Origin: a virus
IMG/VR virus record: IMGVR_UViG_3300025645_000048
Span: 25,306 to 89,305 of that record
DNA length: 64,000 nt
Reading direction: 5' to 3' (one strand)
Positions 24,899 through 60,100 of the stretch are shown here, piece after piece; position 1 is the stretch's first letter; every line of letters begins with the position of its first letter. The notes beneath the pieces were generated by a model that was given only the letters and a program-made list of their open reading frames with translations, did not search any database and was not told the origin of the DNA. The translations under genes were made by a program, and so were the position numbers.

Positions 24899-26512
24899 AT
24901 GAGTGCACAAGGCTATATACCCAAAGACCTAACTTTTGATGAAGAAGGTCGTAAACAATTAATCCAAGGAATTACTGCAATATCTAAAGCTGTAAAAAGT
25001 ACGCTAGGCCCACGCGGTCAGACTGTACTCATTGAATCACCCGATCATGTTGGTGGAATCACAGTGACTAAGGATGGTGTGACTGTAGCCAAGTCTATAT
25101 TCCTAGACAACCCAATAGAAAACCTAGCCATACAAATGATGAAGGATGCAGCAACTAGAACTGCTAACTCTGCGGGTGATGGGACAACTACTGCAATAGT
25201 ATTAACTGAAGCGATAGTAAATGCAGGACAAGAACTATTAAAAGAAAACCATAACATCACCGAGGTGATTAAAGCAATCAACAAGCATTGTGATAAAATA
25301 ATTAGTATACTTGAAAAAGATGCCAAGAAGATTACTCCTGAAACTCTACTAGATGTTGCAACAATATCTGCCAACAACGACAAAGAGATAGGCCAGATAA
25401 TATCTGATGCCTATAAAAAAGTTGGTGCCAATGGTATAGTTACTGTAGAAAAGTCACAGAACCACGAGACCTATGCCGAGGTGACTAATGGTATAAAAGT
25501 AGATCGAGGATACTCCTCACCTATGTTTTTGAACAATCATCGTAAAGACGAGTGTGTGCTTGAAGATGTCTTGGTCTTAGTGTGTGACATAACAATTGAC
25601 AATATTCTGCAAATAGAGAATGTACTCAAACCAATCATACAACAAAACAAGAAACTACTAATCATCGCACCATGTGCTGACAATGTGGTCAACACTCTTG
25701 CGGCCAATGTGGTTCGTAATAATTTAAAAGTATGTACTGTTCTGCCTCCACAGTTTGGCTACAAAAGTCACGAGCTGATGCAAGATATAGCATTCGCGGT
25801 CGGTGCAAAAATATTCTCAGAACAAACTGGTGACGACTTAAGTCTTATAAACATGAACGACCTTGGTCATGTAGATAAAATAATAGTTGGTAAAGACTCC
25901 AGTGTGTTAATCAAGGACGCAGACATAAGCGAGGCAACACAAAACAGAATAGAAGAGCTGAAGGAACAACAACAAAATATGACAATTAAAAGCGATAAAG
26001 ACTTTATAAACGAGAGAGTGGCAAGTCTAGCTGGTGCCATTGGTTGTATATATGTCGGAGCTAATAGCGACGTGGAGCAAAAAGAAAAATTTGACCGAGT
26101 CGATGACTCGGTGTGTGCAGTTCGTAGCGCCTTGCAAGAAGGCATTATTCCCGGCGGAGGACTGGCACTATTTCATTGTGCTAGGTTTTTAAAAGAATAT
26201 ATTAAGTCATACAAGCCATTTGAGAACGAACCCAACATACAAGTAGCTGGTGAGATATTAGCCCAAGCAATACAAGTGCCATTAAAACAAATAATTATTA
26301 ATTCAGGTCAAGATGTGACTGAAATAATTAGTAAATTTCAACACATGGGAGGTAATATAGGATACGATGTTAAGAATGAAGATGTTGATGACATGTATGT
26401 GTTAGGTGTAATCGATCCACTTAAAGTAACTAAGAATGCACTGGTCAATGCAGTGTCTGTAGCCACAACAATACTATCAACTAATGCAATAATAACACAT
26501 AAACGAGCATGA
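24899..26512 (+). CDS. groEL: Phage chaperonin GroEL
   Basis: TLGPRG, TKDGVTVAK, AGDGTTTA, GIIPGGG, IDPLKV motifs; no GGM tail. Confidence 0.97.
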   Translation: MSAQGYIPKDLTFDEEGRKQLIQGITAISKAVKSTLGPRGQTVLIESPDHVGGITVTKDGVTVAKSIFLDNPIENLAIQMMKDAATRTANSAGDGTTTAIVLTEAIVNAGQELLKENHNITEVIKAINKHCDKIISILEKDAKKITPETLLDVATISANNDKEIGQIISDAYKKVGANGIVTVEKSQNHETYAEVTNGIKVDRGYSSPMFLNNHRKDECVLEDVLVLVCDITIDNILQIENVLKPIIQQNKKLLIIAPCADNVVNTLAANVVRNNLKVCTVLPPQFGYKSHELMQDIAFAVGAKIFSEQTGDDLSLINMNDLGHVDKIIVGKDSSVLIKDADISEATQNRIEELKEQQQNMTIKSDKDFINERVASLAGAIGCIYVGANSDVEQKEKFDRVDDSVCAVRSALQEGIIPGGGLALFHCARFLKEYIKSYKPFENEPNIQVAGEILAQAIQVPLKQIIINSGQDVTEIISKFQHMGGNIGYDVKNEDVDDMYVLGVIDPLKVTKNALVNAVSVATTILSTNAIITHKRA

Positions 26513-27363: not shown

Positions 27364-27489
27364 ATGGCTTTAAATAATTTCGTATCTTATTTGTCGAAAG
27401 GTAAAAAGAAAAGACCTGGTGTTCATAGTAAGAATGCTTCGCGTAGTCAAAATGCTTACAAGAAGGCTTATCGTGGACAAGGTAGATAA
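27364..27489 (+). CDS. 41-aa basic microprotein ending YRGQGR
   Basis: Homologous to 38241-38375. Confidence 0.7.
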   Translation: MALNNFVSYLSKGKKKRPGVHSKNASRSQNAYKKAYRGQGR

Positions 27490-27514
27490 AGTTTAATATT
27501 TTAAAAATATAATT

Positions 27515-27667
27515 ATGCCAACAGTAAAATCAAAATCTGGTAATAAAGTATTTCCATACAATGCAGTAGGTAAAGCACAGGCTCACCAATATGCAAAAAT
27601 GAATGGAGGTAAAGTAAAAAATAATCCAAACTACGGTATGGAGAAAAAAATGAACTCATCATATTAA
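27515..27667 (+). CDS. 50-aa basic microprotein (MPTVKSKSGNKVFPYNAVGK...)
   Basis: Translated manually. Confidence 0.65.
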   Translation: MPTVKSKSGNKVFPYNAVGKAQAHQYAKMNGGKVKNNPNYGMEKKMNSSY

Positions 27668-27671
27668 TATT

Positions 27672-27854
27672 ATGGCTAAAAAAGATTACAACAGTATCAA
27701 TTTTAAAAACAAAGACATTGATAAAATTATATCAAAAAGAAAACCAGTAAAAAAAATTAAAAGTCATTTATTACCACAAGGGGTTAAAAAAACTGCATGG
27801 ACAACAGTTGGATTAAATACATATCCTAAAAATATGGATCACTTGAAAAAATAA
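27672..27854 (+). CDS. Basic microprotein
   Basis: MAKK start within array. Confidence 0.6.
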   Translation: MAKKDYNSINFKNKDIDKIISKRKPVKKIKSHLLPQGVKKTAWTTVGLNTYPKNMDHLKK

Positions 27855-27857
27855 ATT

Positions 27858-27971
27858 ATGGCTAGAAAAAAGAAAATGAAGAACCCATGTTGGAAAGGTT
27901 TTATTGCATATGGAATGAAAATGAAGAACGGAAAAGAAGTTCCAAATTGTGTTCCTAAGAAAAAGAAATAA
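27858..27971 (+). CDS. 37-aa microprotein with PCWKG..YGMK.K.GK.VPNCVP motif
   Basis: Translated manually; same motif inside the portal at ~61453-61524. Confidence 0.7.
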   Translation: MARKKKMKNPCWKGFIAYGMKMKNGKEVPNCVPKKKK

Positions 27972-27973
27972 TT

Positions 27974-28249
27974 ATGCCTATAGCAAGAACCACAGGCAAA
28001 GGAGGTAACTATAGGTCCACATCATCTGGTGCGGGTATGACTGCTAGAGGGGTGGCTGCATATAAAAGAGCCAATCCTGGATCAAACCTAAAAACTGCGG
28101 TTACTGAAAAGAAACCTAGCAAAATGAGGTCAAAAAGAAGAAAGTCTTATTGCTCTAGGTCTGCTGGTCAAATGCGTATGCACAATATTAATTGTTCTAA
28201 GACTCCAGAAAAAAGAATTTGTGCAGCTCGTAGACGTTGGAGATGTTAA
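27974..28249 (+). CDS. Basic Cys-containing phage protein (DUF6321-like)
   Basis: GMT..G...Y...NPGS.LK, RRKSYCSRS.G, ARRRW.C. Confidence 0.75.
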   Translation: MPIARTTGKGGNYRSTSSGAGMTARGVAAYKRANPGSNLKTAVTEKKPSKMRSKRRKSYCSRSAGQMRMHNINCSKTPEKRICAARRRWRC

Positions 28250-28259
28250 ATAAAAAATT

Positions 28260-28601
28260 ATGGCTAAGAAAAAAAATGATCCTGAATATATTAGACTTCG
28301 TTCTTCAACCAAGTCTAATCAAAAAATGGGTAAGAAAAAGAAAAGTAAAACTGTTTCTGAATCCTCTAATACTCCCGCTTATGGCAATAAGCCAAATGTT
28401 TCATACAGCAAAACTACAACAAAAACTAAAGGAAATAAAACTACACAAAAAAGTAAATTTAAACAGGTTAGCGAAAACAATGGTGAATTTACTAAGTATG
28501 TTTCCAGAACCAGAAATGGTAATAGAAGAGTTAGAACAAAAAAAATATCTGCAAGTAGGGCGGAAGGAATAGCTAGAAGGTTGAAGAAAAAATATAAATA
28601 A
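28260..28601 (+). CDS. Lys/Arg-rich protein
   Basis: MAKKK start, 113 aa. Confidence 0.65.
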   Translation: MAKKKNDPEYIRLRSSTKSNQKMGKKKKSKTVSESSNTPAYGNKPNVSYSKTTTKTKGNKTTQKSKFKQVSENNGEFTKYVSRTRNGNRRVRTKKISASRAEGIARRLKKKYK

Positions 28602-28637
28602 AATATTAGTATATTTGTATATATAAATTTTTAAATT

Positions 28638-28835
28638 ATGAAAAAACAAGGATATAATTCAAGACTAGATGAGTCTTTAGGTGCTAAGCATGGGAAAAAA
28701 TCTCAATCTTATAAAGATCGTAGAGATGAATCAAAAGCTATGTCTAAAAAAGAATATGGACATTCTTACGGAGGTGACTCTGGAATGTCATACAGACATT
28801 CATCTAGTTGGAAAACTCACGGTCATTTAAAATAA
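28638..28835 (+). CDS. Basic microprotein (KKQGYNSRLDESLG)
   Basis: Own TATATTTG promoter at 28610-28617. Confidence 0.7.
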   Translation: MKKQGYNSRLDESLGAKHGKKSQSYKDRRDESKAMSKKEYGHSYGGDSGMSYRHSSSWKTHGHLK

Positions 28836-28990
28836 TGGCTAAGAACTTTATACAAAATGTTTTTCAAGGAGCAAAACGAAGAGGAACTCTTGGTGATTGC
28901 ACTGGGAAAAAATTTGGCAGCAAGAGTTGTCCAGTAGGAAGTAAAAAATATAATTTTGCAAAAACAATGCGCAAAATAAATAAAAAATAA
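28835..28990 (+). CDS. Basic Cys-containing microprotein (MAKNFIQ...CTGKKFGSKSCP)
   Basis: TAATG coupling on both sides. Confidence 0.7.
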   Translation: MAKNFIQNVFQGAKRRGTLGDCTGKKFGSKSCPVGSKKYNFAKTMRKINKK

Positions 28991-29148
28991 TGGCTAAGAA
29001 AAAAATCAAATTAGTTAATAAAAAAATAACTAAACAAGATCCTCCTACAGCAGGCTTCGTAGAATGGCATGATAGATCACAGGAAATCAAAGATAGAATG
29101 GCTGCAAGACAGGTTGCATTAGCAAAAGAGTTTAAAAAGAAAAAATAA
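28990..29148 (+). CDS. 52-aa basic microprotein (MAKKKIKL...)
   Basis: Translated manually. Confidence 0.65.
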   Translation: MAKKKIKLVNKKITKQDPPTAGFVEWHDRSQEIKDRMAARQVALAKEFKKKK

Positions 29149-29289
29149 ATGGGCAAGTTATTAGTTAAGATAGGACATTGGATTCAGAAAGTTTGGAAAA
29201 AACTTTTATGTAAATGGAACTGGTTAGTGTCAAAACTAATTATAGATGTTAAAGAATGTCCAGTCGCACAGTGTGTTTGTAAAAAATAA
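29149..29289 (+). CDS. 46-aa amphipathic Trp/Lys/Cys-rich peptide
   Basis: MGKLLVKIGHWIQKVWKKLLCKWNWLVSKL...CPVAQCVCKK. Confidence 0.6.
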   Translation: MGKLLVKIGHWIQKVWKKLLCKWNWLVSKLIIDVKECPVAQCVCKK

Positions 29290-29291
29290 TT

Positions 29292-29438
29292 ATGAAATCA
29301 AGAGGCATAGGCGATAGTATAGAAAAATTTACCAAGGCTACTGGTATAAAAAAAGTAGTCGAAACAGTAACGAAAGGCGACTGTGGTTGTAACAAGCGTA
29401 GAGATACGTTGAACCGTATGTTTCCTTACGATAGATAA
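29292..29438 (+). CDS. 48-aa DCGC-motif microprotein
   Basis: GD.....K.TGIK..V...DCGC..RR; homologous to 42124-42270. Confidence 0.7.
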   Translation: MKSRGIGDSIEKFTKATGIKKVVETVTKGDCGCNKRRDTLNRMFPYDR

Positions 29439-29468
29439 AGAGATTTTTAACCCTCTAAATTAAATAAA

Positions 29469-30263
29469 ATGGCGTATCCTAAAATTACCGTTAACACGGG
29501 ACAAGCACTTATAGTAGTGCCAAGTGACACAATTCCAATACCAAATCCAAACTTTATAGCAGCTACAGGCGTGGGCAATCAAGTTGACAATGGAGTAAAT
29601 ACTTCTGTTGTAACAAACAAACTGGTTGACACTGGTGCAACATGGACAGCAACAACTCCACCACTTCCAGTAGTTGTTGGTGATGTTGTTTATAATACAA
29701 CAACTCCAGCAAATGCCGCAGTAACAGCTGTAGATTCTGCCACACAATTAGCTTTTGGTAGTAATATTTTTCAAGCAACACCCGAAAACTATTTAATAGT
29801 AAGACAAAATGCGTTAGTAGATGATGAAATAGATTTTGTAGCTAAAGGGGTTAAGCCTGGAGATATAGTTTTAAATACTGACAATCCAGGTATTGCTACA
29901 GTTTCAGCAGTCGTTGGTGTAGATGAATTAACCTTAAGTGCTAATATATTTGGTACAGACTCTACATACGATGACAACTTTAGAATATATTCACAAGCAG
30001 AAGGCGGTTCTAATTATCCAGCATATGGTGGCACAAATGGAGGTGTGGCTACAACATCAAACAACGAAGGGTGTTTAATATATGTAGGAGATGCAACTGC
30101 AGCTACTACTATAGCTACTCAGTTTTATAATGTAACAGTAAGAACTGTAGCTGGAGATATAATTACATTTCATAATTGTCAAGTAGGTTCTTACCTACCA
30201 ATACAATGTGTACAAGTAATGGCAACAGGAACTACAGCAGATAAACTTATAGCAATATGGTAA
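29469..30263 (+). CDS. Putative virion structural/decoration protein
   Basis: Beta-rich, internal duplication (LVD...VGD.V.NT...A.V.AV...L...NIF), ends V.ATGTTA..LIAIW. Confidence 0.65.
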   Translation: MAYPKITVNTGQALIVVPSDTIPIPNPNFIAATGVGNQVDNGVNTSVVTNKLVDTGATWTATTPPLPVVVGDVVYNTTTPANAAVTAVDSATQLAFGSNIFQATPENYLIVRQNALVDDEIDFVAKGVKPGDIVLNTDNPGIATVSAVVGVDELTLSANIFGTDSTYDDNFRIYSQAEGGSNYPAYGGTNGGVATTSNNEGCLIYVGDATAATTIATQFYNVTVRTVAGDIITFHNCQVGSYLPIQCVQVMATGTTADKLIAIW

Positions 30264-30342
30264 ATAAATATTACTACACGCAAACAAATAGTTTGTTAAA
30301 CGATGAAATAGTTTTTAATTACACTTATGTAAAATAATAATA

Positions 30343-30618
30343 ATGAAAAAATTTAATCCACAAAGTAAATTTAGTTTATCAATAAAAGAACTTATAACTG
30401 GAGCACTTGGATTAGGTTCATTATTAGCTGTTTTTTTTACTCTTAAAGCTGATATTGCATTGGCAAAACAATTGCCATTACCAGAAGTCACGAAAATTGA
30501 ATTGTCTTATAAAGATGAGTTAATAAAAAATGATTTCGAAAATATGAAAGAAGATATTTCTGACATAAAAGATGACATTAAATACATAAAAGATTATATA
30601 ATAAAAAATAAAAAATAA
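30343..30618 (+). CDS. TM plus coiled-coil protein, distant paralog of next gene
   Basis: FTL..DI and E..YKDELI shared with 30621-30932. Confidence 0.7.
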   Translation: MKKFNPQSKFSLSIKELITGALGLGSLLAVFFTLKADIALAKQLPLPEVTKIELSYKDELIKNDFENMKEDISDIKDDIKYIKDYIIKNKK

Positions 30619-30620
30619 CC

Positions 30621-30932
30621 ATGGCAACTAAGATTGGTGAAGATACTAACGTACAGCTTGATTTAAAAACAATCGGCATAATTATAGCAGGAACAATTTC
30701 TTTAGCTAGTATGTGGTTTACTTTACAAAGTGATATATCAGAATTACAAAACAAAATAGATAATTTTTCTGGAGATGAGTTTGTACAACAAATGGAGTTT
30801 AAATTTAAAGATGAGTTAATTCGTTCTAACATAGTTACAATTGATAAGCTTACTGAAAATATAAAAGAAGATGTTGAAGAAAATAAAGAAGCAATAAAAG
30901 ATTTAGAAGATAAAGTTTATAAAAAAAGATGA
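30621..30932 (+). CDS. N-terminal TM plus coiled-coil lysis-cassette protein (copy A)
   Basis: One TM then heptads; about 80% identical to 37104-37412 by manual alignment. Confidence 0.8.
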   Translation: MATKIGEDTNVQLDLKTIGIIIAGTISLASMWFTLQSDISELQNKIDNFSGDEFVQQMEFKFKDELIRSNIVTIDKLTENIKEDVEENKEAIKDLEDKVYKKR

Positions 30933-31249
30933 AAAATTTAATATGTGTTTTTTTTGTGTTTTTTTTGTGTTTTATAAATGCACAAGATTTAACATTAATG
31001 CATATAAATGCAAAATGGAATCAACCTAATAATTTTGATTTAAAGGGCATACAGAATTGTAAAGTGAGATATGCATTATTAGAAGATCAAGTCCCATCAC
31101 TCAAAGCACAAATAAAATCTGTTCCAATAATAATTTTATTAGACAAAAATGGAAAACCAAGAGGACAATGGGTTGCTAATTTAAGTTTTAAAATAACAGC
31201 GACTAAAGAAGAAATACAAGATAGAGTAAATATTATTGCTAAAGAATAG
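30929..31249 (+). CDS. Secreted thioredoxin-fold protein lacking CxxC (copy A)
   Basis: Signal peptide ending NA|Q; HINAKWN in place of F.A.WC; IKSVP.IILLD.NG. Confidence 0.65.
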   Translation: MKNLICVFFVFFLCFINAQDLTLMHINAKWNQPNNFDLKGIQNCKVRYALLEDQVPSLKAQIKSVPIIILLDKNGKPRGQWVANLSFKITATKEEIQDRVNIIAKE

Positions 31250-31253
31250 TTAA

Positions 31254-31667
31254 ATGAGAAACATAGATAAAATTATTGTCCACTGTTCAGCAACTCCAAA
31301 AGGAAAACATTTCAGTGCTGATACTATAAAGAAATGGCATTTAGAAAGAGGCTTCTCAGATATTGGTTATCATTATATTGTTCATATTGATGGAAGTATG
31401 GAGTATGGAAGAATGGTTAACATTCAAGGTGCTCATTGTAAAGGACAAAATAAATCTAGCATAGGTGTATGTTATATTGGGGGGATGGATGAAGATATGA
31501 ATGAATGGGAAGACACAAGAACTGAAGAACAAAAATCTACACTTTTAGATTTATTAAATTTATTAAAAAAATTTCATCCAAATGCAGAAATATATGGTCA
31601 CAGAGACTTTTCTACAAAAGCATGTCCTAGTTTCGATGCAAAGGAAGAATATAAATATTTAACATGA
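31254..31667 (+). CDS. Endolysin, N-acetylmuramoyl-L-alanine amidase (T7 lysozyme-like)
   Basis: IVHCSAT, DIGYHY, GAH..G.N..SIG.CY.GG, GHRD, KACPSF. Confidence 0.95.
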   Translation: MRNIDKIIVHCSATPKGKHFSADTIKKWHLERGFSDIGYHYIVHIDGSMEYGRMVNIQGAHCKGQNKSSIGVCYIGGMDEDMNEWEDTRTEEQKSTLLDLLNLLKKFHPNAEIYGHRDFSTKACPSFDAKEEYKYLT

Positions 31668-32071
31668 AAAAATTATTTGCAAAAATGTTTGGTGGAGCTG
31701 GAGTCTCTATCGCAGAAAAACTAGGAGGAGTAGTTGATAAGTTTGTAAGGACTAAAGATGAAAAGGCGGAGTTTGAAAAACAAATGACAGAGATTTTTAT
31801 GTCTCATGAATTGAGTCTAGAAAAAGAAATCACATCACGTCATGCCGCAGACATGCAATCGGATTCATGGCTTTCGAAGAATATACGTCCTCTACTTACT
31901 ATTTTTAGCTTAATATTATATACACTATTTGCTATATCAGATGGCAATATAGGAGAATTTAATATAGCAAATCAGTATGTAGATCTGCTTGGACAAATTG
32001 TAATAATGAGTCTAGGTTTTTATTTTACTTCTCGAGGTATTGAAAAAACTGCAAAGATTTGGAAGAAATAA
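31664..32071 (+). CDS. Holin (GTA-type 3TM family, copy A)
   Basis: DM.SDSWLSKNIRP, two TMs, FYF.SR..EK. Confidence 0.8.
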   Translation: MKKLFAKMFGGAGVSIAEKLGGVVDKFVRTKDEKAEFEKQMTEIFMSHELSLEKEITSRHAADMQSDSWLSKNIRPLLTIFSLILYTLFAISDGNIGEFNIANQYVDLLGQIVIMSLGFYFTSRGIEKTAKIWKK

Positions 32072-32113
32072 AACAAAGCAAAAGATTTATTAACTTTGTT
32101 AAAATAAATTATT

Positions 32114-32839
32114 ATGGCAAGAATTAGTACTTACCCTTTAGACACTAAACTAGTTGGCTCCGATTATTGGATTGGATCAGACGCTAATAGTAGTTTTGCT
32201 ACTAAAAACTTTACTATAGAGTCTGTAGCTAAGTTTATGAACAGGGAAGCTGTTCAGTCACAAGCTATAAGATTTGTATATACTAATACTGTTCCAGTTG
32301 GGACTGGAAGTTTATCATTTAATCCACAAGGTAATGACAATGTATCGTTTTCTGGAATAACAGGATTTAAAATTAGCAAGTATGCATTAGTAGAACCTAC
32401 AACAGACATTTCTGGGTATTATGAAACTGGATTATTAGGTGCAGATGTATTGGTCACTCAATGTGATGACATATCTAAATGGGCTATTTTTACTTGGAAC
32501 ACCGCTACAGTAGATGCAAGTGGAAACTTTTACGACATAGCTGTTACCCATAAGAACAGTCAAAATGGCTTAACAGCAAACAAAGATTATTTTATATCTT
32601 TGCTAAGTATTCCAGGGACATCTGATGCAAACTTTACATTTGCATTAACTGGATCAAATCAATACACTGTTGTTCATGGTTTGAACAAAATTCCATCAGT
32701 AACAGTTTTGACAGGAACAATTGCAAGTCCTGGAGTAGAAATTTTTTGCGATGTTGATTTTGTTGATAACAATCAAGTAACATTAACATTTGCACAACCT
32801 GCAAACCCAGGATTTACTGGGGTTGTAACATTTAATTAA
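32114..32839 (+). CDS. Tail/virion structural protein
   Basis: MARISTYP start; C-terminal VVHGLNK.PSV module. Confidence 0.65.
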   Translation: MARISTYPLDTKLVGSDYWIGSDANSSFATKNFTIESVAKFMNREAVQSQAIRFVYTNTVPVGTGSLSFNPQGNDNVSFSGITGFKISKYALVEPTTDISGYYETGLLGADVLVTQCDDISKWAIFTWNTATVDASGNFYDIAVTHKNSQNGLTANKDYFISLLSIPGTSDANFTFALTGSNQYTVVHGLNKIPSVTVLTGTIASPGVEIFCDVDFVDNNQVTLTFAQPANPGFTGVVTFN

Positions 32840-32850
32840 AATAAAAAATT

Positions 32851-34341
32851 ATGGCAATAAAATATTTATCTAATATTAATCTTGATAATAATGAGCTGAA
32901 AGGCTTTATTGTCGATAATCAATCATCTAACCCAAGTGGACTAGCTGGTGAAGGACAACTTATATACAGAACTGACACAAATGAACTTTACTATCACACT
33001 GGTAGTAATACATGGGTAGCGATATCATCTGGTATGGTTACGTGGATATTAGCAGGAGATTCAGGAACACAAACTATTGGAAATGGTCAATCTGCAACTG
33101 TAGCTGGTGAGTCAGGGTTTATAACAACAACTGCGGGAGCTACTAGACAGGTAACAATTACAATGGATGATAATGCACCTAGTGCTGCAGCAGGCACAGT
33201 CGCATTCCCAACTAGTATTGGTTACAATAAAAAAGGACAAATCACAGCAGTTACTGCTGGTACACAACCCGTAACTAGTTTTAATATAAGTGATGGTACA
33301 ACTTCAGAGACTGTTGAAAATGGAGACACAATTACATTTGCACATAATACAGGTTTAGAAGCAACAATTAGTGCTACAGATACAGTAACATATAGCTTAC
33401 AATTAGAAGATTTACCAGACATGACTCAAACCTGGGTTAACACTGATGAATTTATTGTATTAGATGGAACAGCTCAGAAAAGAAAACAAAGTAGTGAAAT
33501 ACCTATTAACTTACTAGGAGCTCCAGCCGCAAATTTAGATATTAATACAAATAAACTTATAAATGTAACTAATCCTACAGATGCACAAGACGCAGCAACA
33601 AAAGCATATGTTGATGCTGCTGTAACGGGACTTTTAGAATTTAAAGGAGGATTTGATGGTAGTACCGGTAAGGTTGCAGGAACAACAGACTTTTTAGATA
33701 GTAGAGGTACACAGATTGCATGTGCAGTCGGTGATACTTATGTCGTAACTGTAGATGGTACTTTTTATACTGAAACTGTAGCGGTTGGTGACACATTAAT
33801 ATGTCAAACTGCAACTGCAGCTGGGGCAGGAGCATTAACTGACTGGATTACTGTTCAAAATAACATAGGTATAGCAACAGCAACAACTACAGGTATTGTA
33901 AGCATTCCTACAGCAGGAGGACTTACGGTAAGTGCGGCAGGAGCAGTATCTTTAGACACTCAAGGTGGATTAACTGCAGATACATATGGTGCAGCAGCAA
34001 AAGCAACCGTAATTACTGTAGATGATAAAGGTGTTATTACTGGAGCATCAGAACCAGCTATCGCAATAACAGCATCTCAAGTAACAGACTTTTGTACTGA
34101 AGTTCAATCTTGTGTAGGAACAAATTTAAATTATGCAGTTGACATTGGAGATGGCTCAACTAACCCTATTATTGTAACTCATAACTTAGGAACATTAGAT
34201 GTAATTGTACAGTTAGTATTAAAGTCTACTGGCGAAACAATTTATGCAGATACAGTTAGAAACAGTACAACACAAGTAACTATAACTACTACAACAACTT
34301 TAGCTACTGCTGAAGCTAGGATTTTGGTAACCGCTGTGTAA
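32851..34341 (+). CDS. Tail fibre protein
   Basis: Gly/Thr/Ala-rich; DAATKAYVD; ITVDDKG.IT; VTHNLG module. Confidence 0.8.
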   Translation: MAIKYLSNINLDNNELKGFIVDNQSSNPSGLAGEGQLIYRTDTNELYYHTGSNTWVAISSGMVTWILAGDSGTQTIGNGQSATVAGESGFITTTAGATRQVTITMDDNAPSAAAGTVAFPTSIGYNKKGQITAVTAGTQPVTSFNISDGTTSETVENGDTITFAHNTGLEATISATDTVTYSLQLEDLPDMTQTWVNTDEFIVLDGTAQKRKQSSEIPINLLGAPAANLDINTNKLINVTNPTDAQDAATKAYVDAAVTGLLEFKGGFDGSTGKVAGTTDFLDSRGTQIACAVGDTYVVTVDGTFYTETVAVGDTLICQTATAAGAGALTDWITVQNNIGIATATTTGIVSIPTAGGLTVSAAGAVSLDTQGGLTADTYGAAAKATVITVDDKGVITGASEPAIAITASQVTDFCTEVQSCVGTNLNYAVDIGDGSTNPIIVTHNLGTLDVIVQLVLKSTGETIYADTVRNSTTQVTITTTTTLATAEARILVTAV

Positions 34342-34359
34342 AACATTAACTTTACTCAC

Positions 34360-35946
34360 ATGGCGATTAGATTCTTAAGTAGCGGAGACATAGATGGTGC
34401 TTTAACCATAAACTCTACCGTCACCTTAAATAAAACTAATAATGTTATTAGTATTCCTAGTTTAGTCGATAATGGAACTTTTCTAGAAATTACACAAACA
34501 GGAAATGAAACTTGGTTATTTAAGTGTGAATCATTAAGTGGATCATTAGATGGTGTTTCAATCGGCACTAGCAGTGCAGGTAAAGTGACGTTCGATGAAA
34601 ATGGACAAATTCATAGCACTCAATTATTAGATGTAGCAACAGCAGGAGGAAGGTTAATAGGTGAAAGTAGTAGGGGGTATCTATCATCAATTCATTTAGA
34701 ACAGTCAGCTACTGGTGCAGATGGAGGCTATATTAGATTTGAAACTGCAACTTCTGGAACGACAAGTGGTGTTGAAAGATTAAGAATTACAGATACTGGA
34801 GCTATATCTGTCGGATCGACAGGAACTAACTATGGTTCATCTGGTCAAGTATTAACTTCTGGTGGAAACTCTAATCCTACATGGACAACCCCAACAACAG
34901 GAACCGTAACTGGTACTGGTGTTAATAATAGATTAGCAATTTGGAATGGCACAACTGCTATTGATTCTGATTCTGATTTTTATGTTGATGGTGATACTAT
35001 ATTCACAGCAAACTTTCAAGCATCTGGAAACATATCTATAACAGGCACATCATTTTTAGATGGTGATGTTACAATTGGTGATACAAATTCAGCATTTATA
35101 GGAATGGCAAGAGCAGGTGCAAATTATTTAGCTGCAACAAATGCGTCTGGATATTTAGTATTTAGAACTGCTGGTTCAAATGAAAGAATGCGTATAGACA
35201 TTTCAGGGGATGTCGGGATAGGAGTTACAGACGGAGATATATTTGGTAGATTTTATGGTAGAAGTGTTGGTATAGGAGGAACTGGTATTGCTAAGTTACA
35301 GATAAATGGAACTTCTTATTCTGGAATTGATTTAGGTCAAAATGGAACAAGATACGGAGAATTAAATGCAAGTGCTACCATAGTTCAACTTCAAACACTT
35401 GCAGACATTCCATTAACTTTTGGTACAGGCACAAGTGCTACAGAAAGAATGCGTATAACATCTGGGGGTCAAGTTTGTATTGGCACAGATTCAACAACAG
35501 TATCATCATCAGTTGTAAGTGCTGTTTTTGGCTCTGGTAGTGATGCAACTTTAAAATTAGGTGGGCATAGTGGTACACACACTATGGTACAATTTTTCCA
35601 TACAGGTTCATCAGTTGGTAGTATAACATCTACTACAAGTGCAACTTCCTACAACACATCTTCTGATTATAGATTAAAAGAAGATTTACAAGACTTTGCA
35701 GGTTTAGATATGGTTTCTAAAATACCTGTATATGACTTTAAATGGAAAACAGATGATAGCAGAAGTTATGGAGTTATGGCTCACGAACTACAAGAAGTTT
35801 TACCTCAAGCAGTTTCAGGAGATAAAGATGCAGAAGAAATGCAATCTGTTGATTATTCTAAAATAGTTCCTTTATTAGTTAAGTCAATACAAGAACTAAA
35901 AGCAGAAGTAGACAAATTGAAACAAGAATGTAAATGTAAAAATTAG
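34360..35946 (+). CDS. Tail fibre with C-terminal intramolecular chaperone (peptidase S74)
   Basis: ER(L/M)RI-bounded modules; TSSDYRLKE, G.MAHELQEV.P.AV.G, VDYSK.VP.LVK.IQEL. Confidence 0.9.
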   Translation: MAIRFLSSGDIDGALTINSTVTLNKTNNVISIPSLVDNGTFLEITQTGNETWLFKCESLSGSLDGVSIGTSSAGKVTFDENGQIHSTQLLDVATAGGRLIGESSRGYLSSIHLEQSATGADGGYIRFETATSGTTSGVERLRITDTGAISVGSTGTNYGSSGQVLTSGGNSNPTWTTPTTGTVTGTGVNNRLAIWNGTTAIDSDSDFYVDGDTIFTANFQASGNISITGTSFLDGDVTIGDTNSAFIGMARAGANYLAATNASGYLVFRTAGSNERMRIDISGDVGIGVTDGDIFGRFYGRSVGIGGTGIAKLQINGTSYSGIDLGQNGTRYGELNASATIVQLQTLADIPLTFGTGTSATERMRITSGGQVCIGTDSTTVSSSVVSAVFGSGSDATLKLGGHSGTHTMVQFFHTGSSVGSITSTTSATSYNTSSDYRLKEDLQDFAGLDMVSKIPVYDFKWKTDDSRSYGVMAHELQEVLPQAVSGDKDAEEMQSVDYSKIVPLLVKSIQELKAEVDKLKQECKCKN

Positions 35947-35978
35947 TATATTTATATCTTAATCATAAAATTAATAAA

Positions 35979-36212
35979 ATGTCAAAAATTACAAAAGAAG
36001 AATTAAAAAATTTACAAGAACAACAAGGTAAGCTAAATGCTATTAAACACGATATTGGTTTATTAAGCACACAAATACATAGCTTAAACCATATGTACGC
36101 TGAAGAAATTTCTAAACAAGAAGAAAGTAAAAAAGGTTTAGAAGAATCTTACGGTAAAATAAACATAGACCTAAAGGATGGGTCATATGAAGAAATCAAA
36201 GAAGATAAATAA
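35979..36212 (+). CDS. Small coiled-coil protein following tail fibre
   Basis: KIT.EEL...LEE.YG.INIDL.DG. Confidence 0.7.
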   Translation: MSKITKEELKNLQEQQGKLNAIKHDIGLLSTQIHSLNHMYAEEISKQEESKKGLEESYGKINIDLKDGSYEEIKEDK

Positions 36213-36382
36213 TGAGTTTACAGGATATGAAATTGTATGCAATTAATTTTTCAGCTTTTACGTTGAGTTTCACAAATATTGATATGATATTAAAAATAAT
36301 ACTACTTACAGTTACTATCCTGTACACAACTCACAAATGGTATTTAATGTATGAAGAAAATAAGCGAAAACATAAGTTATAA
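36212..36382 (+). CDS. 56-aa membrane protein (putative holin)
   Basis: Translated manually; hydrophobic with basic tail; overlaps endolysin start. Confidence 0.55.
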   Translation: MSLQDMKLYAINFSAFTLSFTNIDMILKIILLTVTILYTTHKWYLMYEENKRKHKL

Positions 36383-36824
36383 GGAAGCAGTACGTTCCGA
36401 AACAGCTAAACGTTTAGGTATCTCAAATAAACCTAAAAAAGAACATATTGAAAATATGGAGTTAATAGCTGAAAAAATCTTTCAACCATTAAGAGAATGG
36501 GTAGACCATCCTATTAGAATAAACAGCTTTTATCGTTCAGAAGAACTTAATTCAAGAATTGGAGGTGCAATTTCATCGGCTCATAAAGATGGTTTAGCAA
36601 TGGATTTAGATTCTTTAGGTGGCAAAACTAACCTTGAGATGTTACATTATATAAAAGACCATTTAGACTTTGATATTTTAATTAATGAATATCCAAATCA
36701 AGAAGGAGAACCAAAATGGATTCACGTTAGTTGGAGTAAAAAGAAAAACAGAAAACAAGTTTTAGAAATAAAACGCAAAGGCAAATACTATACTTATACA
36801 GGCGAATGTAAAAGCTGTAAATGA
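36351..36824 (+). CDS. Endolysin, peptidase M15 family
   Basis: INSFYRS..LN..IGG...S.H..G.A.D, WIHVS. Confidence 0.9.
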   Translation: MKKISENISYKEAVRSETAKRLGISNKPKKEHIENMELIAEKIFQPLREWVDHPIRINSFYRSEELNSRIGGAISSAHKDGLAMDLDSLGGKTNLEMLHYIKDHLDFDILINEYPNQEGEPKWIHVSWSKKKNRKQVLEIKRKGKYYTYTGECKSCK

Positions 36825-36982
36825 AAAAAGTAGAATTTGCAATAATTGAAAGGTTTGCTTTAGGTATATTAATTGGTTTTAGTTATTTGCCACAAGATGA
36901 AGAAACAAATTTTGATGAATTAAATATATATGTAATTTTTATAGTATTACATTTTAAATTTTATAACGATGCCCATACCTAA
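36821..36982 (+). CDS. 53-aa hypothetical membrane-associated protein
   Basis: Translated manually; ATGA coupling. Confidence 0.55.
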   Translation: MKKVEFAIIERFALGILIGFSYLPQDEETNFDELNIYVIFIVLHFKFYNDAHT

Positions 36983-37100
36983 AAAGAAACAAGGAGAAAA
37001 ACAGAAGGACTATATGATGCGATGTGTACCTCAATTGATGAAATACCATCCAGAAAAACAAGCTGTAGCAATTTGCTATAAAGAATACAGAAACAAATAA
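36969..37100 (+). CDS. 43-aa protein MPIPKKKQGEKQKDYMMRC...QAVAICY
   Basis: Translated manually; two-Cys phage microdomain. Confidence 0.65.
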   Translation: MPIPKKKQGEKQKDYMMRCVPQLMKYHPEKQAVAICYKEYRNK

Positions 37101-37103
37101 AAA

Positions 37104-37412
37104 ATGGCAACAAAGATAAGTGAAGATACAAACGTACAATTAGATTTAAAAACTATTGGAATTATAATAGCAGGAACAATATCACTTGCGAGTATGTGGT
37201 TTACTTTACAAGGAGATATACAAGACCTAAACAATAAAATTGAGGGGTTTAGTGGAGATGAATTTGTGCAAAGAATGGAATTCCAATTAAAAGATGAATT
37301 AATTAGAAATAACGTAATACAAATTGATAAGCTAACAGAAAATATGAAAGAGGATATTGAAGAAAATAAAGAAGCTATAAAAGATTTAGAAAACAAAGTT
37401 TTTAGAAGATGA
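37104..37412 (+). CDS. TM plus coiled-coil lysis-cassette protein (copy B)
   Basis: Homolog of 30621-30932. Confidence 0.8.
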   Translation: MATKISEDTNVQLDLKTIGIIIAGTISLASMWFTLQGDIQDLNNKIEGFSGDEFVQRMEFQLKDELIRNNVIQIDKLTENMKEDIEENKEAIKDLENKVFRR

Positions 37413-37732
37413 AACATTTAATATATGTATTGTTTATTTTGTTATTGTGTTCAATAGGTAACGCTCAAGATTTAACATTATTACACATAAACGCAAAATG
37501 GAATCAATCGAATAATTACGATTTGAAAGGTTTAAAAAATTGTAAAGTTAAAATGACTTTATTAGAGGATTTAGTACCTTCTATGAAAGCACAAATAAAA
37601 TCAGTACCTACTATTATTTTACTTGACCAAAACGGTAAACCAAGAGGACAATGGAAGGCAGGTTTAAGTTTTAAAGTAGAAGCAACAAAAGAAGAAATAC
37701 AAGACAGAATTGATTTTATATTTAAACAATAA
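37409..37732 (+). CDS. Secreted thioredoxin-fold protein lacking CxxC (copy B)
   Basis: Homolog of 30929-31249. Confidence 0.65.
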   Translation: MKHLIYVLFILLLCSIGNAQDLTLLHINAKWNQSNNYDLKGLKNCKVKMTLLEDLVPSMKAQIKSVPTIILLDQNGKPRGQWKAGLSFKVEATKEEIQDRIDFIFKQ

Positions 37733-37736
37733 TATT

Positions 37737-37877
37737 ATGGAAACTATAAAACATTTACTGGGTTTTTGTGGGGAGCATTTGCATCCTAACATTTTTACAA
37801 TTACAATAACATTAATTATTTTAAAATTAATTTATGAAAAATATATTAGCAAAACTATTTGGGGGAGCTGGAGGTAG
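37737..37877 (+). CDS. 46-aa membrane peptide (METIKHLLGFCGEH.HPN...)
   Basis: Translated manually; occupies the slot held by the amidase in cassette A. Confidence 0.55.
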   Translation: METIKHLLGFCGEHLHPNIFTITITLIILKLIYEKYISKTIWGSWR

Positions 37878-38241
37878 TATAGCAGAAAAAATATCTGGTA
37901 TTATTGACAAACATACTTTTAGTAAAGTTGAGAAAGCACAATTTGAAAAAGAGATGGAGGAGATATTTATCAAAGCTGAACTTGATCTTGAAAGAGAAAT
38001 AACAAATCGTCACGCAAATGATATGGCAAGTGATAGTTGGTTAAGCAAAAACATCAGACCAATGCTTACTATATTTTCTTTAGTTTTATATACTTTATTT
38101 GCCTTAATTGACGGAAACATAGGAGAATTCAACATAGCGAATCAATATGTAGATTTACTTGGGCAAATAGTTATAATGAGTTTAGGGTTTTACTTTACAT
38201 CAAGAGGTATAGAAAAAACAGCAAAGATCATTAAGAAATAA
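37834..38241 (+). CDS. Holin (GTA-type 3TM family, copy B)
   Basis: Homolog of 31664-32071; C-terminal half nearly identical. Confidence 0.8.
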   Translation: MKNILAKLFGGAGGSIAEKISGIIDKHTFSKVEKAQFEKEMEEIFIKAELDLEREITNRHANDMASDSWLSKNIRPMLTIFSLVLYTLFALIDGNIGEFNIANQYVDLLGQIVIMSLGFYFTSRGIEKTAKIIKK

Positions 38242-38375
38242 TGGCTAAAGGAATTAATATAAGCACATATAAAAGCAAATCAAAGAAGCGTAAAGGAATA
38301 CACGCAAAAAGTAAAATGAGTGCCTTAAAAGGCTCTAAAAACTATTTTAAGAAATATAAAGGTCAAGGTAAATAA
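38241..38375 (+). CDS. 44-aa basic microprotein ending YKGQGK
   Basis: Homolog of 27364-27489. Confidence 0.7.
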   Translation: MAKGINISTYKSKSKKRKGIHAKSKMSALKGSKNYFKKYKGQGK

Positions 38376-38564
38376 TTTTTTTATATATTTGTTTGGCTTA
38401 TAGCAAACTTGCACAACCTAATAAAGTTGGACGGTGCTTGGAACAGGTAACTAAATTATTTCTTTTTTGTAGGCTTTTTTCTTTCTTTTTCTTTTTGTCC
38501 TTTTTCTTTTTCTTTCTTTTTAGTTATTATAAAAACTATAGGTTATAACCAAAAGTTATAATAT

Positions 38565-38696
38565 ATGAATTGTAAGAAATGTAAATACAAAATGTTATAT
38601 TTAGGTAGTAATCAAAACGGTTATTATAATTTGTGTAAAAAATGCAATAACGTTATACCTACAAATGAAAAAATTAACAAGAAGCAAACTAATTAA
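38565..38696 (+). CDS. Zinc-ribbon microprotein (CKKC...CKKC)
   Basis: Translated manually; similar to 47282-47386. Confidence 0.55.
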   Translation: MNCKKCKYKMLYLGSNQNGYYNLCKKCNNVIPTNEKINKKQTN

Positions 38697-39054
38697 AAAA
38701 CTTGACAAAGTATTTAGTTTATATATTAGACAACGTTATGCTAAAAATGAGATAGCTCAATGTTTTACTTGTGGCAAAAAAGATCATTATAAAAGACTTC
38801 AATGTGGTCATTTTCAAAGCAGAAAATATTATTCTACAAGATGGGATGAAATAAATTGTCAGGTGCAATGTGCAGGGTGTAATGTGTTTAAGTATGGAGA
38901 ACAATTTGTATTTGGCAAAAATCTTGATTTAGAATATGGAGCTGGATGTGCAGAATCACTTTATTTAAAAGCAAAACAAATAACTAAATTCTCCACACCA
39001 GAAATTCAGGAGTTAATAAATAAGTATTCTTTGTTAATAAAAGAGTTAAACTAA
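38665..39054 (+). CDS. ninG: NinG/Rap-like recombination endonuclease
   Basis: DKVFS.YIR.R, CFTCG, CGHF.SR, TRWDE.N...QC..CN. Confidence 0.85.
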   Translation: MKKLTRSKLIKKLDKVFSLYIRQRYAKNEIAQCFTCGKKDHYKRLQCGHFQSRKYYSTRWDEINCQVQCAGCNVFKYGEQFVFGKNLDLEYGAGCAESLYLKAKQITKFSTPEIQELINKYSLLIKELN

Positions 39055-41663: not shown

Positions 41664-42127
41664 TAAAAGTTAGACAATCAAGATTAGATTATTGTGCTAA
41701 TTCTGGTAATTTTTATGAAGAATTATTTTATAAAAAAGTAATTGAAAAAGGTTTTGATTATAGAAAATCTACAAATGAAGAAGATTGGTATATGCACATT
41801 GATTGTTATGTTAATGGTTATGGCGTAGACATAAAAGGCAATAGACATTTAGAAACTATTTGGTTAGAATATACTAATGTTAATGGCAATAATGGCTGGT
41901 TAAGAGGTAAAGCGTTTTATATTGCTATGTTTATAGTAGAATTAAATTGTTTTAGTATTTATAAAAGAATTGATTTATTAAATTATATAAAAGAAAATAC
42001 AAAAAAAACAACAAGTAATAAAAAAGATTATTTAAAACTTTATACAAGAGAGAAATGGGGAAAAAAAGATGAAATTGTAAAAGTTAAATACAATCATATA
42101 AAACATTTAGAATTAATAAAATTATGA
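41660..42127 (+). CDS. PD-(D/E)XK nuclease-like protein
   Basis: ED...HID...VDIKG, WLE..NV.G..GWL.G. Confidence 0.7.
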   Translation: MIKVRQSRLDYCANSGNFYEELFYKKVIEKGFDYRKSTNEEDWYMHIDCYVNGYGVDIKGNRHLETIWLEYTNVNGNNGWLRGKAFYIAMFIVELNCFSIYKRIDLLNYIKENTKKTTSNKKDYLKLYTREKWGKKDEIVKVKYNHIKHLELIKL

Positions 42128-42270
42128 GATTAGGAGACTTAATATTTTACATTACTAAATATACAGGTATTAAATGGCTTGTAGATTGGTATTCAAAAAA
42201 GACTGGAACTGATTGTGGATGTGATGAAAGAAGAAAGAAGTTCAATGAAATAAAAATTAAAAGATGGTAA
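42124..42270 (+). CDS. 48-aa DCGC-motif microprotein
   Basis: MRLGD...TKYTGIKWLV...DCGCDERR; homolog of 29292-29438. Confidence 0.7.
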   Translation: MRLGDLIFYITKYTGIKWLVDWYSKKTGTDCGCDERRKKFNEIKIKRW

Positions 42271-45807: not shown

Positions 45808-46080
45808 GTGGATAATAGAAAAAACAATGGAGGACATTCAACAAAAGGCTTTGCAGGTAGACCTAAAAAAGCAGACGAACTAAAGCTAATTGAAAAACTT
45901 GATGCCTTAATAGATAATGATGAAGTAATTAAAACTTTAGGCAAACAAATACTAAAAGGAGATTCAAGAGCTATGAATCTATATTTCGGTTATAGATATG
46001 GCAAACCTAAAGAATCTGTAGATATATCTTCAAGTGATGGCTTTAATGTAAACTTTAGAGACCTAATCAAATTTAAGTGA
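45808..46080 (+). CDS. terS: Terminase small subunit
   Basis: D.RK.NGG...AGRP.K; YRYGKP; directly upstream of terL. Confidence 0.75.
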   Translation: MDNRKNNGGHSTKGFAGRPKKADELKLIEKLDALIDNDEVIKTLGKQILKGDSRAMNLYFGYRYGKPKESVDISSSDGFNVNFRDLIKFK

Positions 46081-59671: not shown

Positions 59672-60100
59672 ATGATTGTATTAAAGACCATAGCTACTGC
59701 TCAAAACTTTAAAGTAATACCAAGAGTTTACGCTGATGAATTTACTTTATCTATAAGAGACGATAGTACAAACGTAAAACAAATATATGAAGTTACAGGA
59801 GCTATAACATCTGGAAATTATTTAACATTTTCACAAGCTTTTAGTCCTATACTTGTTGAAGGTCATTTTTACGATTTAGAATTATATACAGACCCAAATT
59901 TTTGGAATACTAATTATTTTCTTTGGGAATTATATAATGAATTTTGGAATGTAGATACAACAAACATTGTAGATATATATAAAGACAAGATTTTCTGTAC
60001 TGACCAAGAAATAGATCAAATGGATAATTTATACTATAACATAAATCAAGGTCAATACATTACAGATAATTCTTATAATAATGATTACATTGTAATATGA
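59672..60100 (+). CDS. Structural protein (head closure-like)
   Basis: After late promoter; coupled to portal. Confidence 0.55.
   Translation: MIVLKTIATAQNFKVIPRVYADEFTLSIRDDSTNVKQIYEVTGAITSGNYLTFSQAFSPILVEGHFYDLELYTDPNFWNTNYFLWELYNEFWNVDTTNIVDIYKDKIFCTDQEIDQMDNLYYNINQGQYITDNSYNNDYIVI

Follow-up and report, generated by a model that had tools for sequence, protein, structure and literature searches.

The closest described counterpart of the gene pair analyzed in this study is the two-component spanin Rz/Rz1 of phage lambda, in which the first gene likewise encodes a small bitopic protein of the inner membrane whose C-terminal domain is helical and heptad-patterned, and an overlapping downstream gene a small exported protein, both being located in the lysis cassette independently of the endolysin type. 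Approximately 15% of phages were described to lack a recognizable spanin (bioRxiv 10.1101/515445), and the same preprint reports on phage phiKT, in which gp28, a cationic peptide of 56 amino acids (aa), replaces the spanins. Further lysis factors beyond holin, endolysin, and spanin are gp25 of phage Mu, a releasin (DUF2730) of 99 aa composed of an N-terminal transmembrane domain and an anionic domain (PMC9239132), and Lcc6 of LambdaSo, a small membrane protein required for lysis (bioRxiv 10.1101/2024.01.23.576932). For Bacteroidetes phages, the text of a 2025 survey reports unimolecular spanins only (PMC12596118), leaving the outer-membrane step open for most of them, and few spanin candidates appear in the text of work on flavobacterial phages (PMC8776804). 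Here, a stretch of 64,000 nucleotides (the window), corresponding to bases 25,306 to 89,305 of the 89,305-bp IMG/VR virus record IMGVR_UViG_3300025645_000048, was analyzed with respect to two overlapping genes, one encoding a single-pass membrane protein with a putative coiled coil (the TM-coil protein), and the other a secreted thioredoxin-like protein devoid of both catalytic cysteines. The pair is phage-specific, obligately adjacent, normally embedded in the late lysis gene set, and exchangeable across phage backbones and endolysin types. As first choice, albeit held with somewhat less than even confidence, we propose that its products may form an envelope complex analogous to a two-component spanin.

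The window harbors two cassettes containing the pair, and all open reading frames (ORFs) named in a preliminary description of this DNA were found where it had placed them. Cassette A comprises five tightly packed genes on the plus strand, beginning with a paralogue of the TM-coil gene (30343–30618; 91 aa). It is followed by TM-coil gene A (30621–30932), encoding a predicted bitopic protein of 103 aa with an N-terminal transmembrane helix and a C-terminal helix of approximately 50 residues, and by the gene for secreted protein A (30929–31249; 106 aa), which features WNxxN in place of WCxxC and a predicted signal peptide ending in NA directly ahead of Q. The endolysin gene (31254–31667) encodes an N-acetylmuramoyl-L-alanine amidase (Pfam Amidase_2, E-value 6.7e-12; phrog_822, 1.2e-56), and the last gene (31664–32071), which shares an ATGA overlap with it, a holin of 135 aa (phrog_3427 holin, 7.5e-19). 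Cassette B, also on the plus strand, is ordered as follows: an M15 peptidase gene (36351–36824; Pfam Peptidase_M15_3, 3.6e-14; phrog_894, 1.8e-28), two tiny ORFs, TM-coil gene B (37104–37412; 102 aa), the gene for secreted protein B (37409–37732; 107 aa), a spacer of 101 nt (37733–37833), a holin gene (37834–38241; 135 aa; phrog_3427, 6.4e-17), and a gene for a small cationic protein (38241–38375). No signal-anchor-release (SAR) or signal segment is present in either endolysin, and the holins possess, judging by their sequences, almost no periplasmic domain. Matches of holins A and B to Pfam GTA_holin_3TM (21.2 and 18.6 bits, respectively) are below the cut-off of 24.8 bits; homologues of these holins are annotated as such beside endolysins in Nonlabens and Vibrio phages.

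The preliminary description had recognized the same three genes in the same order twice, with an identity of about 80% for the first of them as counted by hand, and the alignments bear this out: the TM-coil proteins are identical in 82 of 102 positions (80%, E-value 4e-52), the secreted proteins in 78 of 107 (73%, 1e-58), and the holins in 105 of 135 (78%, 5e-79). The ATGA stop/start overlap between the TM-coil gene and the secreted-protein gene, also noted previously, is present in both copies, and the pair is, as read from these junctions, translationally coupled. On the DNA level, similarity is limited to two blocks, namely 30606–31248 versus 37091–37731 (78%) and 31664–32071 versus 37834–38241 (71%), and the endolysin position is outside of both; as previously described, the endolysins differ, the amidase being encoded inside cassette A and the M15 peptidase upstream of the pair in cassette B. 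Ratios of nonsynonymous to synonymous substitution rates between the copies were 0.15 for the TM-coil protein, 0.15 for the secreted protein, and 0.08 for the holin, indicating coding genes under purifying selection rather than chance ORFs. The third TM-coil gene at 30343, likewise confirmed as a paralogue, ends 2 nt before the start of the gene at 30621, encodes a protein with 32% identity to the product of the latter (25 of 77 residues, 1e-8), and has near-identical copies at the same position in loci L005 and L006.

The secreted proteins of the window individually matched no Pfam or PHROG family. A word-indexed search retrieved 164 relatives, all 120 listed ones being at least 62% identical and every source name reading "hypothetical", and a profile hidden Markov model (HMM) scan of 1.84 billion representatives yielded 188 clusters (50% identity), the best 150 of which comprise proteins of 54 to 193 aa. 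The best AlphaFold2 (AF2) model (predicted local distance difference test score, pLDDT, 73.4; the other four models 41–45) adopts the thioredoxin topology, beta-beta-alpha-beta-beta-alpha. Comparison of this model with the PDB by means of Foldseek gave 123 matches with E-values of up to 0.001, and the top matches listed were thioredoxin entries (probability 1.0, TM-scores 0.44–0.58), including thioredoxin complexes, receptor fusions containing thioredoxin, and thioredoxin-based designs; in BFVD, thioredoxin was likewise found at the top. Furthermore, the broader family profile matched thioredoxin among the PDB sequences with an E-value of 7.1e-6, the WN of the family being aligned to the WC of thioredoxin, and 16 of 39 family members individually matched Pfam PF00085 (Thioredoxin), with a best E-value of 2.3e-9. 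Profile comparison and structure prediction identify the secreted protein as a genuine homologue of thioredoxin, sharing with this superfamily the predicted fold, the sequence homology, the tryptophan preceding the first position of the active site, and the cis-proline loop. It differs in the replacement of both catalytic cysteines by asparagine, in the signal peptide, in a shortened first helix, and in its phage-only occurrence beside a coil gene.

In 352 members bearing the active-site motif, WNxxN occurs 323 times, WNxxH 14 times, FNxxN 13 times, and other forms twice, whereas CxxC was never encountered, which substantiates the assignment to a thioredoxin fold without CxxC made in the preliminary description. 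No conserved cysteine column was found in the family alignments. Near-invariant across the family are only W30, N31, N34, and P66, the last of which, by homology the cis-proline position, is invariant in both alignments; these residues would correspond to those lining the thioredoxin substrate groove. Redox-inactive thioredoxin members serve as binding modules, and the redox-independent use of E. coli thioredoxin as a processivity factor in the T7 DNA polymerase complex (PDB 1t7p), which is itself among the Foldseek fold matches, resembles the proposed role. Under every reading discussed below, the conserved groove without cysteines argues for a function as a peptide clamp. Fusion proteins, sought to fix the topology, were of no help: two longer forms were detected among 8,000 scored candidates, i.e., a single-contig protein of 495 aa with the domain at its C-terminus and a multi-thioredoxin protein of 1,767 aa, neither being a coil fusion.

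The choice between signal peptidase I and signal peptidase II at Cys14, put forward for checking in the preliminary description, was approached by family comparison, and signal peptidase I is favored. The column of Cys14 is not conserved in an alignment of 35 sequences; among 343 members with a complete N-terminus, the signal region contains no cysteine in 223, and a lipobox-like context (small residue before the cysteine) is found in eight, so that the lipoprotein reading was discarded. An [AS]-Q sequence ahead of the first strand is present in 272 of the 343 members and, thus, fits the Q-rule described for signal peptidase I substrates of Bacteroidetes (PMC5837995, PMC10653852). Since a conserved signal cysteine or lipobox is missing and the Q-rule applies, the protein looks like a signal peptidase I substrate, that is, a soluble periplasmic protein rather than a lipoprotein of the o-spanin type.

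The TM-coil protein contains a single hydrophobic segment near residues 17–36 (mean hydropathy 1.96), and its AF2 model (pLDDT 64) consists of two helices (residues 15–47 and 52–102), the longer of which exhibits a 3-4 hydrophobic spacing visible in the sequence. Conserved features are a juxtamembrane LDLKT, the stretch E-[FY]-x-L-K-D-x-L-I-R, and a tyrosine near the basic C-terminus, the tail bearing a conserved K-[VIL]-Y. TM-coil protein A matched phrog_3999, a family of no assigned function, at 1.3e-5, its neighbors in the Atlas are all viral "hypothetical" clusters, and a Pfam scan of 40 members returned scattered sub-threshold coiled-coil families only, none exceeding the threshold. Applying the charge-difference rule to 105 TM-coil proteins, the N-terminal flank was more positive in 70, both flanks were equal in 34, and the C-terminal flank was more positive in one; the margin is small, with a mean difference of approximately 1 and both flanks being net negative, and in the paralogue class with an acidic N-terminal tail (DxDxDG type), 12 proteins were N-positive, 6 equal, and 11 C-positive. 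The rule weakly favors an orientation with the N-terminus inside and the C-terminus outside, which would place the coiled coil in the periplasm. No embedded plus-strand ORF of at least 20 aa with a lipoprotein signal was found inside the TM-coil genes. A coil-containing protein encoded beside a related holin in a Vibrio phage was dismissed as a relative, having only a 12-residue stretch in common with the TM-coil protein and containing no embedded lipoprotein.

To evaluate the conservation of the gene neighborhood, a first set of 80 IMG/VR loci and a set of 80 more distant loci were surveyed, the latter originating from 320 pattern matches, 294 of which were confirmed as relatives. A TM-coil gene was located directly upstream in 152 of the 155 loci containing the whole secreted-protein ORF, the three exceptions lying at contig ends. 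In the first set, 78 loci contain the whole ORF, and in 77 of these the TM-coil gene is adjacent and shares the ATGA overlap of 4 nt; 67 of the 78 possess a gene for an M15 peptidase or an amidase no farther than 3.2 kb away, and 46 a holin gene. In the distant set, the TM-coil gene was adjacent in 75 of 77 loci with the ORF, and the 4-nt overlap was present in 58 of 77. Linkage to lysis genes was assessed in 80 loci flanked on either side by 2.8 kb or more (full-flank loci), detection being limited to HMMs for M15 peptidases, amidases, and phrog_3427-type holins. An endolysin or holin gene was found within 3 kb in 65 of them, an endolysin gene in 57, and a holin gene of this type in 52. The order of coil, thioredoxin-like, endolysin, and holin gene is common, and often only a few bases separate the end of the thioredoxin-like gene from the start of the endolysin gene. 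Linkage to lysis genes elsewhere, the lack of which had been named in advance as grounds for abandoning the proposal, is, thus, widespread. Of the conserved lysis module originally suggested, the adjacency of the pair is retained, but the trio is not, as seen from the holin counts: what is conserved is the pair of genes and not a trio with the holin. The pair occurs with amidases or M15 peptidases, and the phage backbones carrying it are of at least two unrelated kinds.

The proximity of holin and endolysin genes would also be expected if the pair regulated lysis timing or were an accessory of these proteins, an explanation ranked second and regarded as unlikely. The thioredoxin-like protein would then sense or bind a periplasmic ligand, and the membrane protein would relay this signal so as to affect either the holin or the release of endolysin, comparable cases being the RI/RIII antiholins of phage T4, Mu releasin, and LambdaSo Lcc6. 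That the exported protein possesses a conserved groove of the ligand type agrees with such a function, as does the net anionic C-terminal part of the TM-coil protein (mean −4), and two different pairs in one phage, encountered in some loci, would suit sensors of different signals. In addition, the TM-coil protein weakly resembles DUF2730 (Pfam PF10805) over its full length (E-value 0.069; 13.7 bits versus a cut-off of 24.9; score in the Atlas 0.82, a lead only); this family was not among the 25 families most matched by the 40 TM-coil members. However, an antiholin dedicated to one holin would be expected to occur together with it, and no holin of this type was detected within 3 kb in 28 of the 80 full-flank loci; the pair also occurs in blocks without holin or endolysin. 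The holin offers almost no periplasmic target for a periplasmic antiholin, and endolysins without a SAR or signal segment are no substrate for a releasin. Like gp25 and Lcc6, the TM-coil protein is small, has a single transmembrane domain, and is encoded near endolysins, but gp25 has its N-terminus outside and its C-terminus inside and acts on SAR endolysins, whereas the opposite topology is predicted here, the endolysins are cytoplasmic, and the exported partner is obligatory. Comparison of the TM-coil family by means of hhalign gave probabilities of 0.6% for Mu gp25 and 0.07% for the Rz-like Mu gp23 (single-sequence templates, hence weak tests), and homology to either protein was rejected.

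Concerning the outer membrane, a lenient lipobox scan of the entire 89-kb record, including all start codons on both strands, returned among real genes only the two thioredoxin-like genes, in addition to three minus-strand ORFs read as spurious; the scan also provided no candidate for a spanin, unimolecular or otherwise, in other parts of the record. The earlier observation that no Rz/Rz1 lipoprotein is visible, therefore, applies to the window and the record, but not to the family as a whole, since 14 of the 80 full-flank loci carry a lipoprotein gene. These lipoproteins (111–161 aa; 34 ORFs in 160 loci, e.g., L008:3085–3429, L029:4021–4401, and L044:8392–8751) feature a canonical lipobox, a conserved, beta-rich N-terminal domain of approximately 35 residues, and a tail rich in Y, N, and S, and are always encoded inside or beside the coil/thioredoxin-like module. 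In the closest relatives of the phage carrying cassette B (loci L008 to L013), a lipoprotein gene of 345 nt is located exactly where the window contains the spacer 37733–37833, approximately 320 nt at this position in L010 having no counterpart in the window, in which no trace of the cassette lipoprotein was found. The lipoprotein is the most o-spanin-like gene product of the neighborhood, and it is dispensable in most carriers of the pair, including both phages of the window. In loci L029 and L052, a four-gene block consisting of lipoprotein, coil, coil, and thioredoxin-like gene stands alone where a structural operon ends, which suggests that these genes encode a separate envelope complex.

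An outer-membrane function could instead be supplied by the cationic protein encoded after holin B (44 aa, 15 K/R, no acidic residue), the start of which shares 1 nt with the holin stop codon. Members of this family (approximately 43 aa, range 39–44 aa; 13–18 K/R and 0–1 acidic residues) are encoded in 86 of 161 loci, and in 43 of 97 holin genes with downstream room, a homologue follows directly, starting at or a few bases from the holin stop. Like phiKT gp28, they are small, very cationic, and encoded in the lysis cassette, and they might act as disruptins, the pair then being a helper or unrelated. Nevertheless, this is the least probable of the explanations considered, and the likeness concerns the gene at 38241 rather than the pair. 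In these proteins, G, S, N, and K are abundant and hydrophobic residues scarce, unlike in the amphipathic helix described for gp28, and the copy in the phage carrying cassette A (27364–27489, plus strand; 41 aa) is located approximately 3 kb upstream of the cassette, remote from the holin gene and among genes for small basic proteins, which fits a nucleic-acid-binding or virion-internal protein. Searches of Pfam and PHROG revealed no function for either the cationic or the lipoprotein family, and the cationic protein is possibly a disruptin-like or a nucleic-acid-binding candidate.

The preferred interpretation of the pair as a spanin-analogous complex follows from the combination of these observations. 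Endolysins without an export signal together with a holin cover the inner-membrane and wall steps, and the lipobox scan revealed no recognizable outer-membrane function in either phage; this gap, the i-spanin-like first protein, and the spanin-like gene arrangement place the complex first. In the proposed mechanism, the two proteins would assemble on the inner membrane of Flavobacteriales hosts, at its periplasmic side, and act late in host lysis, most likely on the envelope once the peptidoglycan has been degraded, as a functional counterpart of two-component spanins. The dead thioredoxin groove may serve as a peptide clamp on the coiled-coil protein or on an outer-membrane partner, so that, after loss of the wall, the assembly would contribute to outer-membrane destruction, possibly aided in some phages by the cassette-encoded lipoprotein. 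A more far-reaching version, namely a new envelope-breaching device of Flavobacteriales phages in which an inner-membrane coiled-coil protein is capped by a redox-dead WNxxN thioredoxin whose former substrate groove clamps a partner peptide, the device replacing spanins of the Rz/Rz1 type, is conceivable but doubtful.

Several observations weigh against a spanin-like function. Chief among them is the lack of an evident outer-membrane anchor in the exported partner, which does not belong to the lipoproteins; it is predicted to be a folded domain released by signal peptidase I, unlike the disordered o-spanins, and in contrast to Rz/Rz1, a separate true lipoprotein is encoded in only the minority of loci mentioned above. 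The periplasmic part of the TM-coil protein comprises only approximately 65 residues, i.e., about half of the ectodomain length in lambda, its topology is predicted weakly (both flanks being net negative and the acidic-tail class ambiguous), and no sequence relation to Rz-type proteins was detected in Pfam or by hhalign against Mu gp23. Two different pairs in one phage, which would be unusual for spanins, are present in L022 (2689–3329 and 4696–5324) and L058 (2739–3427 and 4699–5333), in both cases separated by a gene for a secreted protein of approximately 400 aa, and the active-site motif of the first pair has drifted to F-V-x-x-N. The holin-coupled cationic protein could provide the outer-membrane step in place of the pair. 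Finally, 14 of the 80 full-flank loci contain no recognized endolysin or holin gene anywhere in the locus, although other types could escape the HMMs used, and in some of these non-lysis loci the pair lies among head genes, e.g., in L104 between portal and head genes.

The position of the pair among head and tail genes without a nearby lysis gene in these 14 loci would be accounted for if it were a late envelope module unrelated to lysis, serving superinfection exclusion or the mimicry of a periplasmic thiol-redox or envelope-stress partner. The redox-dead WNxxN protein could, in that case, be a decoy of periplasmic thioredoxin-like proteins, and Q-rule secreted proteins of no known role are described for Porphyromonas phages (PMC10367356). 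This explanation appears quite improbable, because lysis genes lie within 3 kb in most full-flank loci and the endolysin gene is often only a few bases downstream. Exclusion genes, moreover, are typically prophage-borne, whereas members of the family are hardly ever encoded in cellular genomes or prophages. When 185,579 species genomes were scanned with a sequence pattern, a single locus (L167) emerged, represented by a Crocinitomicaceae contig of the metagenome-assembled genome G006 with coil, thioredoxin-like, and M15 genes, next to which an ORF of 836 aa with a signal peptide is encoded on the opposite strand, read by eye as a host TonB-receptor-like protein. Among 401 genomes from the order to which G006 belongs, two were matched by the HMM (E-value of at most 1e-6), one being G006 itself. 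Host indications all point to Flavobacteriales.

Within viral sequences, the family comprises at least 294 IMG/VR stretches. By contrast, tblastn searches of 50,697 GenBank phage records with five queries (TM-coil protein A and four thioredoxin-like proteins) recovered no family member; four queries gave no matches, and P0227 gave weak matches to annotated thioredoxins and unannotated fecal contigs, one of which was examined and encodes a canonical WCGPC thioredoxin. No match for the pair was obtained among curated Pfam and PHROG families of known function, and no description of it was found in the literature, the search covering publications other than the supplementary tables of PMC8776804 and PMC12596118. 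The suggestion that the pair is undescribed holds within these collections.

The pair was proposed to have been exchanged between unrelated phages, and the layout of the record agrees with a module common to such phages. It contains two large terminase genes, i.e., phrog_6681 (record positions 4384–6567) and phrog_2/3717 (window 46077–47279), and two portal genes, phrog_6547 (record 6567–8999) and phrog_33693 (window 60097–62133). Although rated 100% complete, the 89-kb record is a composite of two phage genomes (phage 1 with cassette A and phage 2 with cassette B), presumably from marine flavobacterial phages. Relatives of phage 1 align to window positions 34342–35484 and those of phage 2 to 35401/35413–35943; because the former matches end at approximately 35,484 and the latter begin at approximately 35,401, the join is located within a tail-fiber gene (34360–35946, plus strand; PHROG tail-fiber families) at approximately 35,400–35,480, the N-terminal part of its product resembling phage-1 and the C-terminal part phage-2 relatives. 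The final ORF of the window (62728–63999) matches PHROG tail-fiber and baseplate families and continues past the record end. A search of the record ends and of the join for a simple repeat, which would prove a figure-of-eight or chimeric assembly, found none. Cassettes A and B belong to two different phage genomes and do not represent a duplication inside one phage, and the same module is present in two unrelated phage backbones irrespective of whether the record is chimeric or recombinant.

Two related records are informative in this respect. G002 (65,232 bp, with direct terminal repeats and a terminase of 87% identity) contains the first terminase type only and the pair once (L044). The independent IMG/VR record G001 (95,752 bp), from which L052 and L057 originate, likewise encodes terminases of both types and carries the pair twice, with the order reversed, which may reflect recurrent co-assembly of the two phage types or a real composite. 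Two IMG/VR records rated 100% complete, thus, each seem to contain two phages.

Further genes of both phages were recorded in the course of the analysis. Phage 1 encodes a GroEL-like chaperonin (24899–26512; phrog_5725, 9e-133), and between this gene and the structural and lysis genes, approximately eight small, extremely basic ORFs (41–113 aa) are located at 27364–29148; similar K/R-rich proteins adjoin the module in L058 and L121. An ORF of 2,992 aa (523–9501), downstream of structural-region ORFs of 1,607 and 707 aa, gave no PHROG match at an E-value of 1e-5 or below, and the label N4-like was not applied to phage 1. Both phages encode a 48-aa protein with a C-G-C motif (29292–29438 and 42124–42270; 44% identity), of which 20 ORFs were counted across 19 related loci, often near the pair. 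Two tiny hydrophobic ORFs without family match (36212–36382, 56 aa; 36821–36982, 53 aa) flank and overlap the M15 gene and may be extra membrane lysis factors or non-genes. In L121 (4635–4952) and L127 (3515–3835), an ORF of approximately 105 aa with a short hydrophobic start, matching the heavy-metal-associated domain family HMA of Pfam at 1.3e-6, directly follows coil, thioredoxin-like, and coil genes. A scan of positions 29000–39000 for promoters and terminators remained at chance level (45 found versus 50 expected and 4 versus 3.3, respectively).

The pair represents a widespread, sharply defined, and phage-only candidate for closing the outer-membrane gap in Bacteroidota phages. It is, at the same time, a clear case in which a thioredoxin fold is devoid of both cysteines and its groove is still strongly constrained, and it is useful as a structural and genetic target and as a better marker of lysis modules in marine viromes. 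If the more far-reaching version considered above is correct, the complex would constitute a third class of outer-membrane disruption beside spanins and disruptins, to which a lipoprotein would have been added in some phages.

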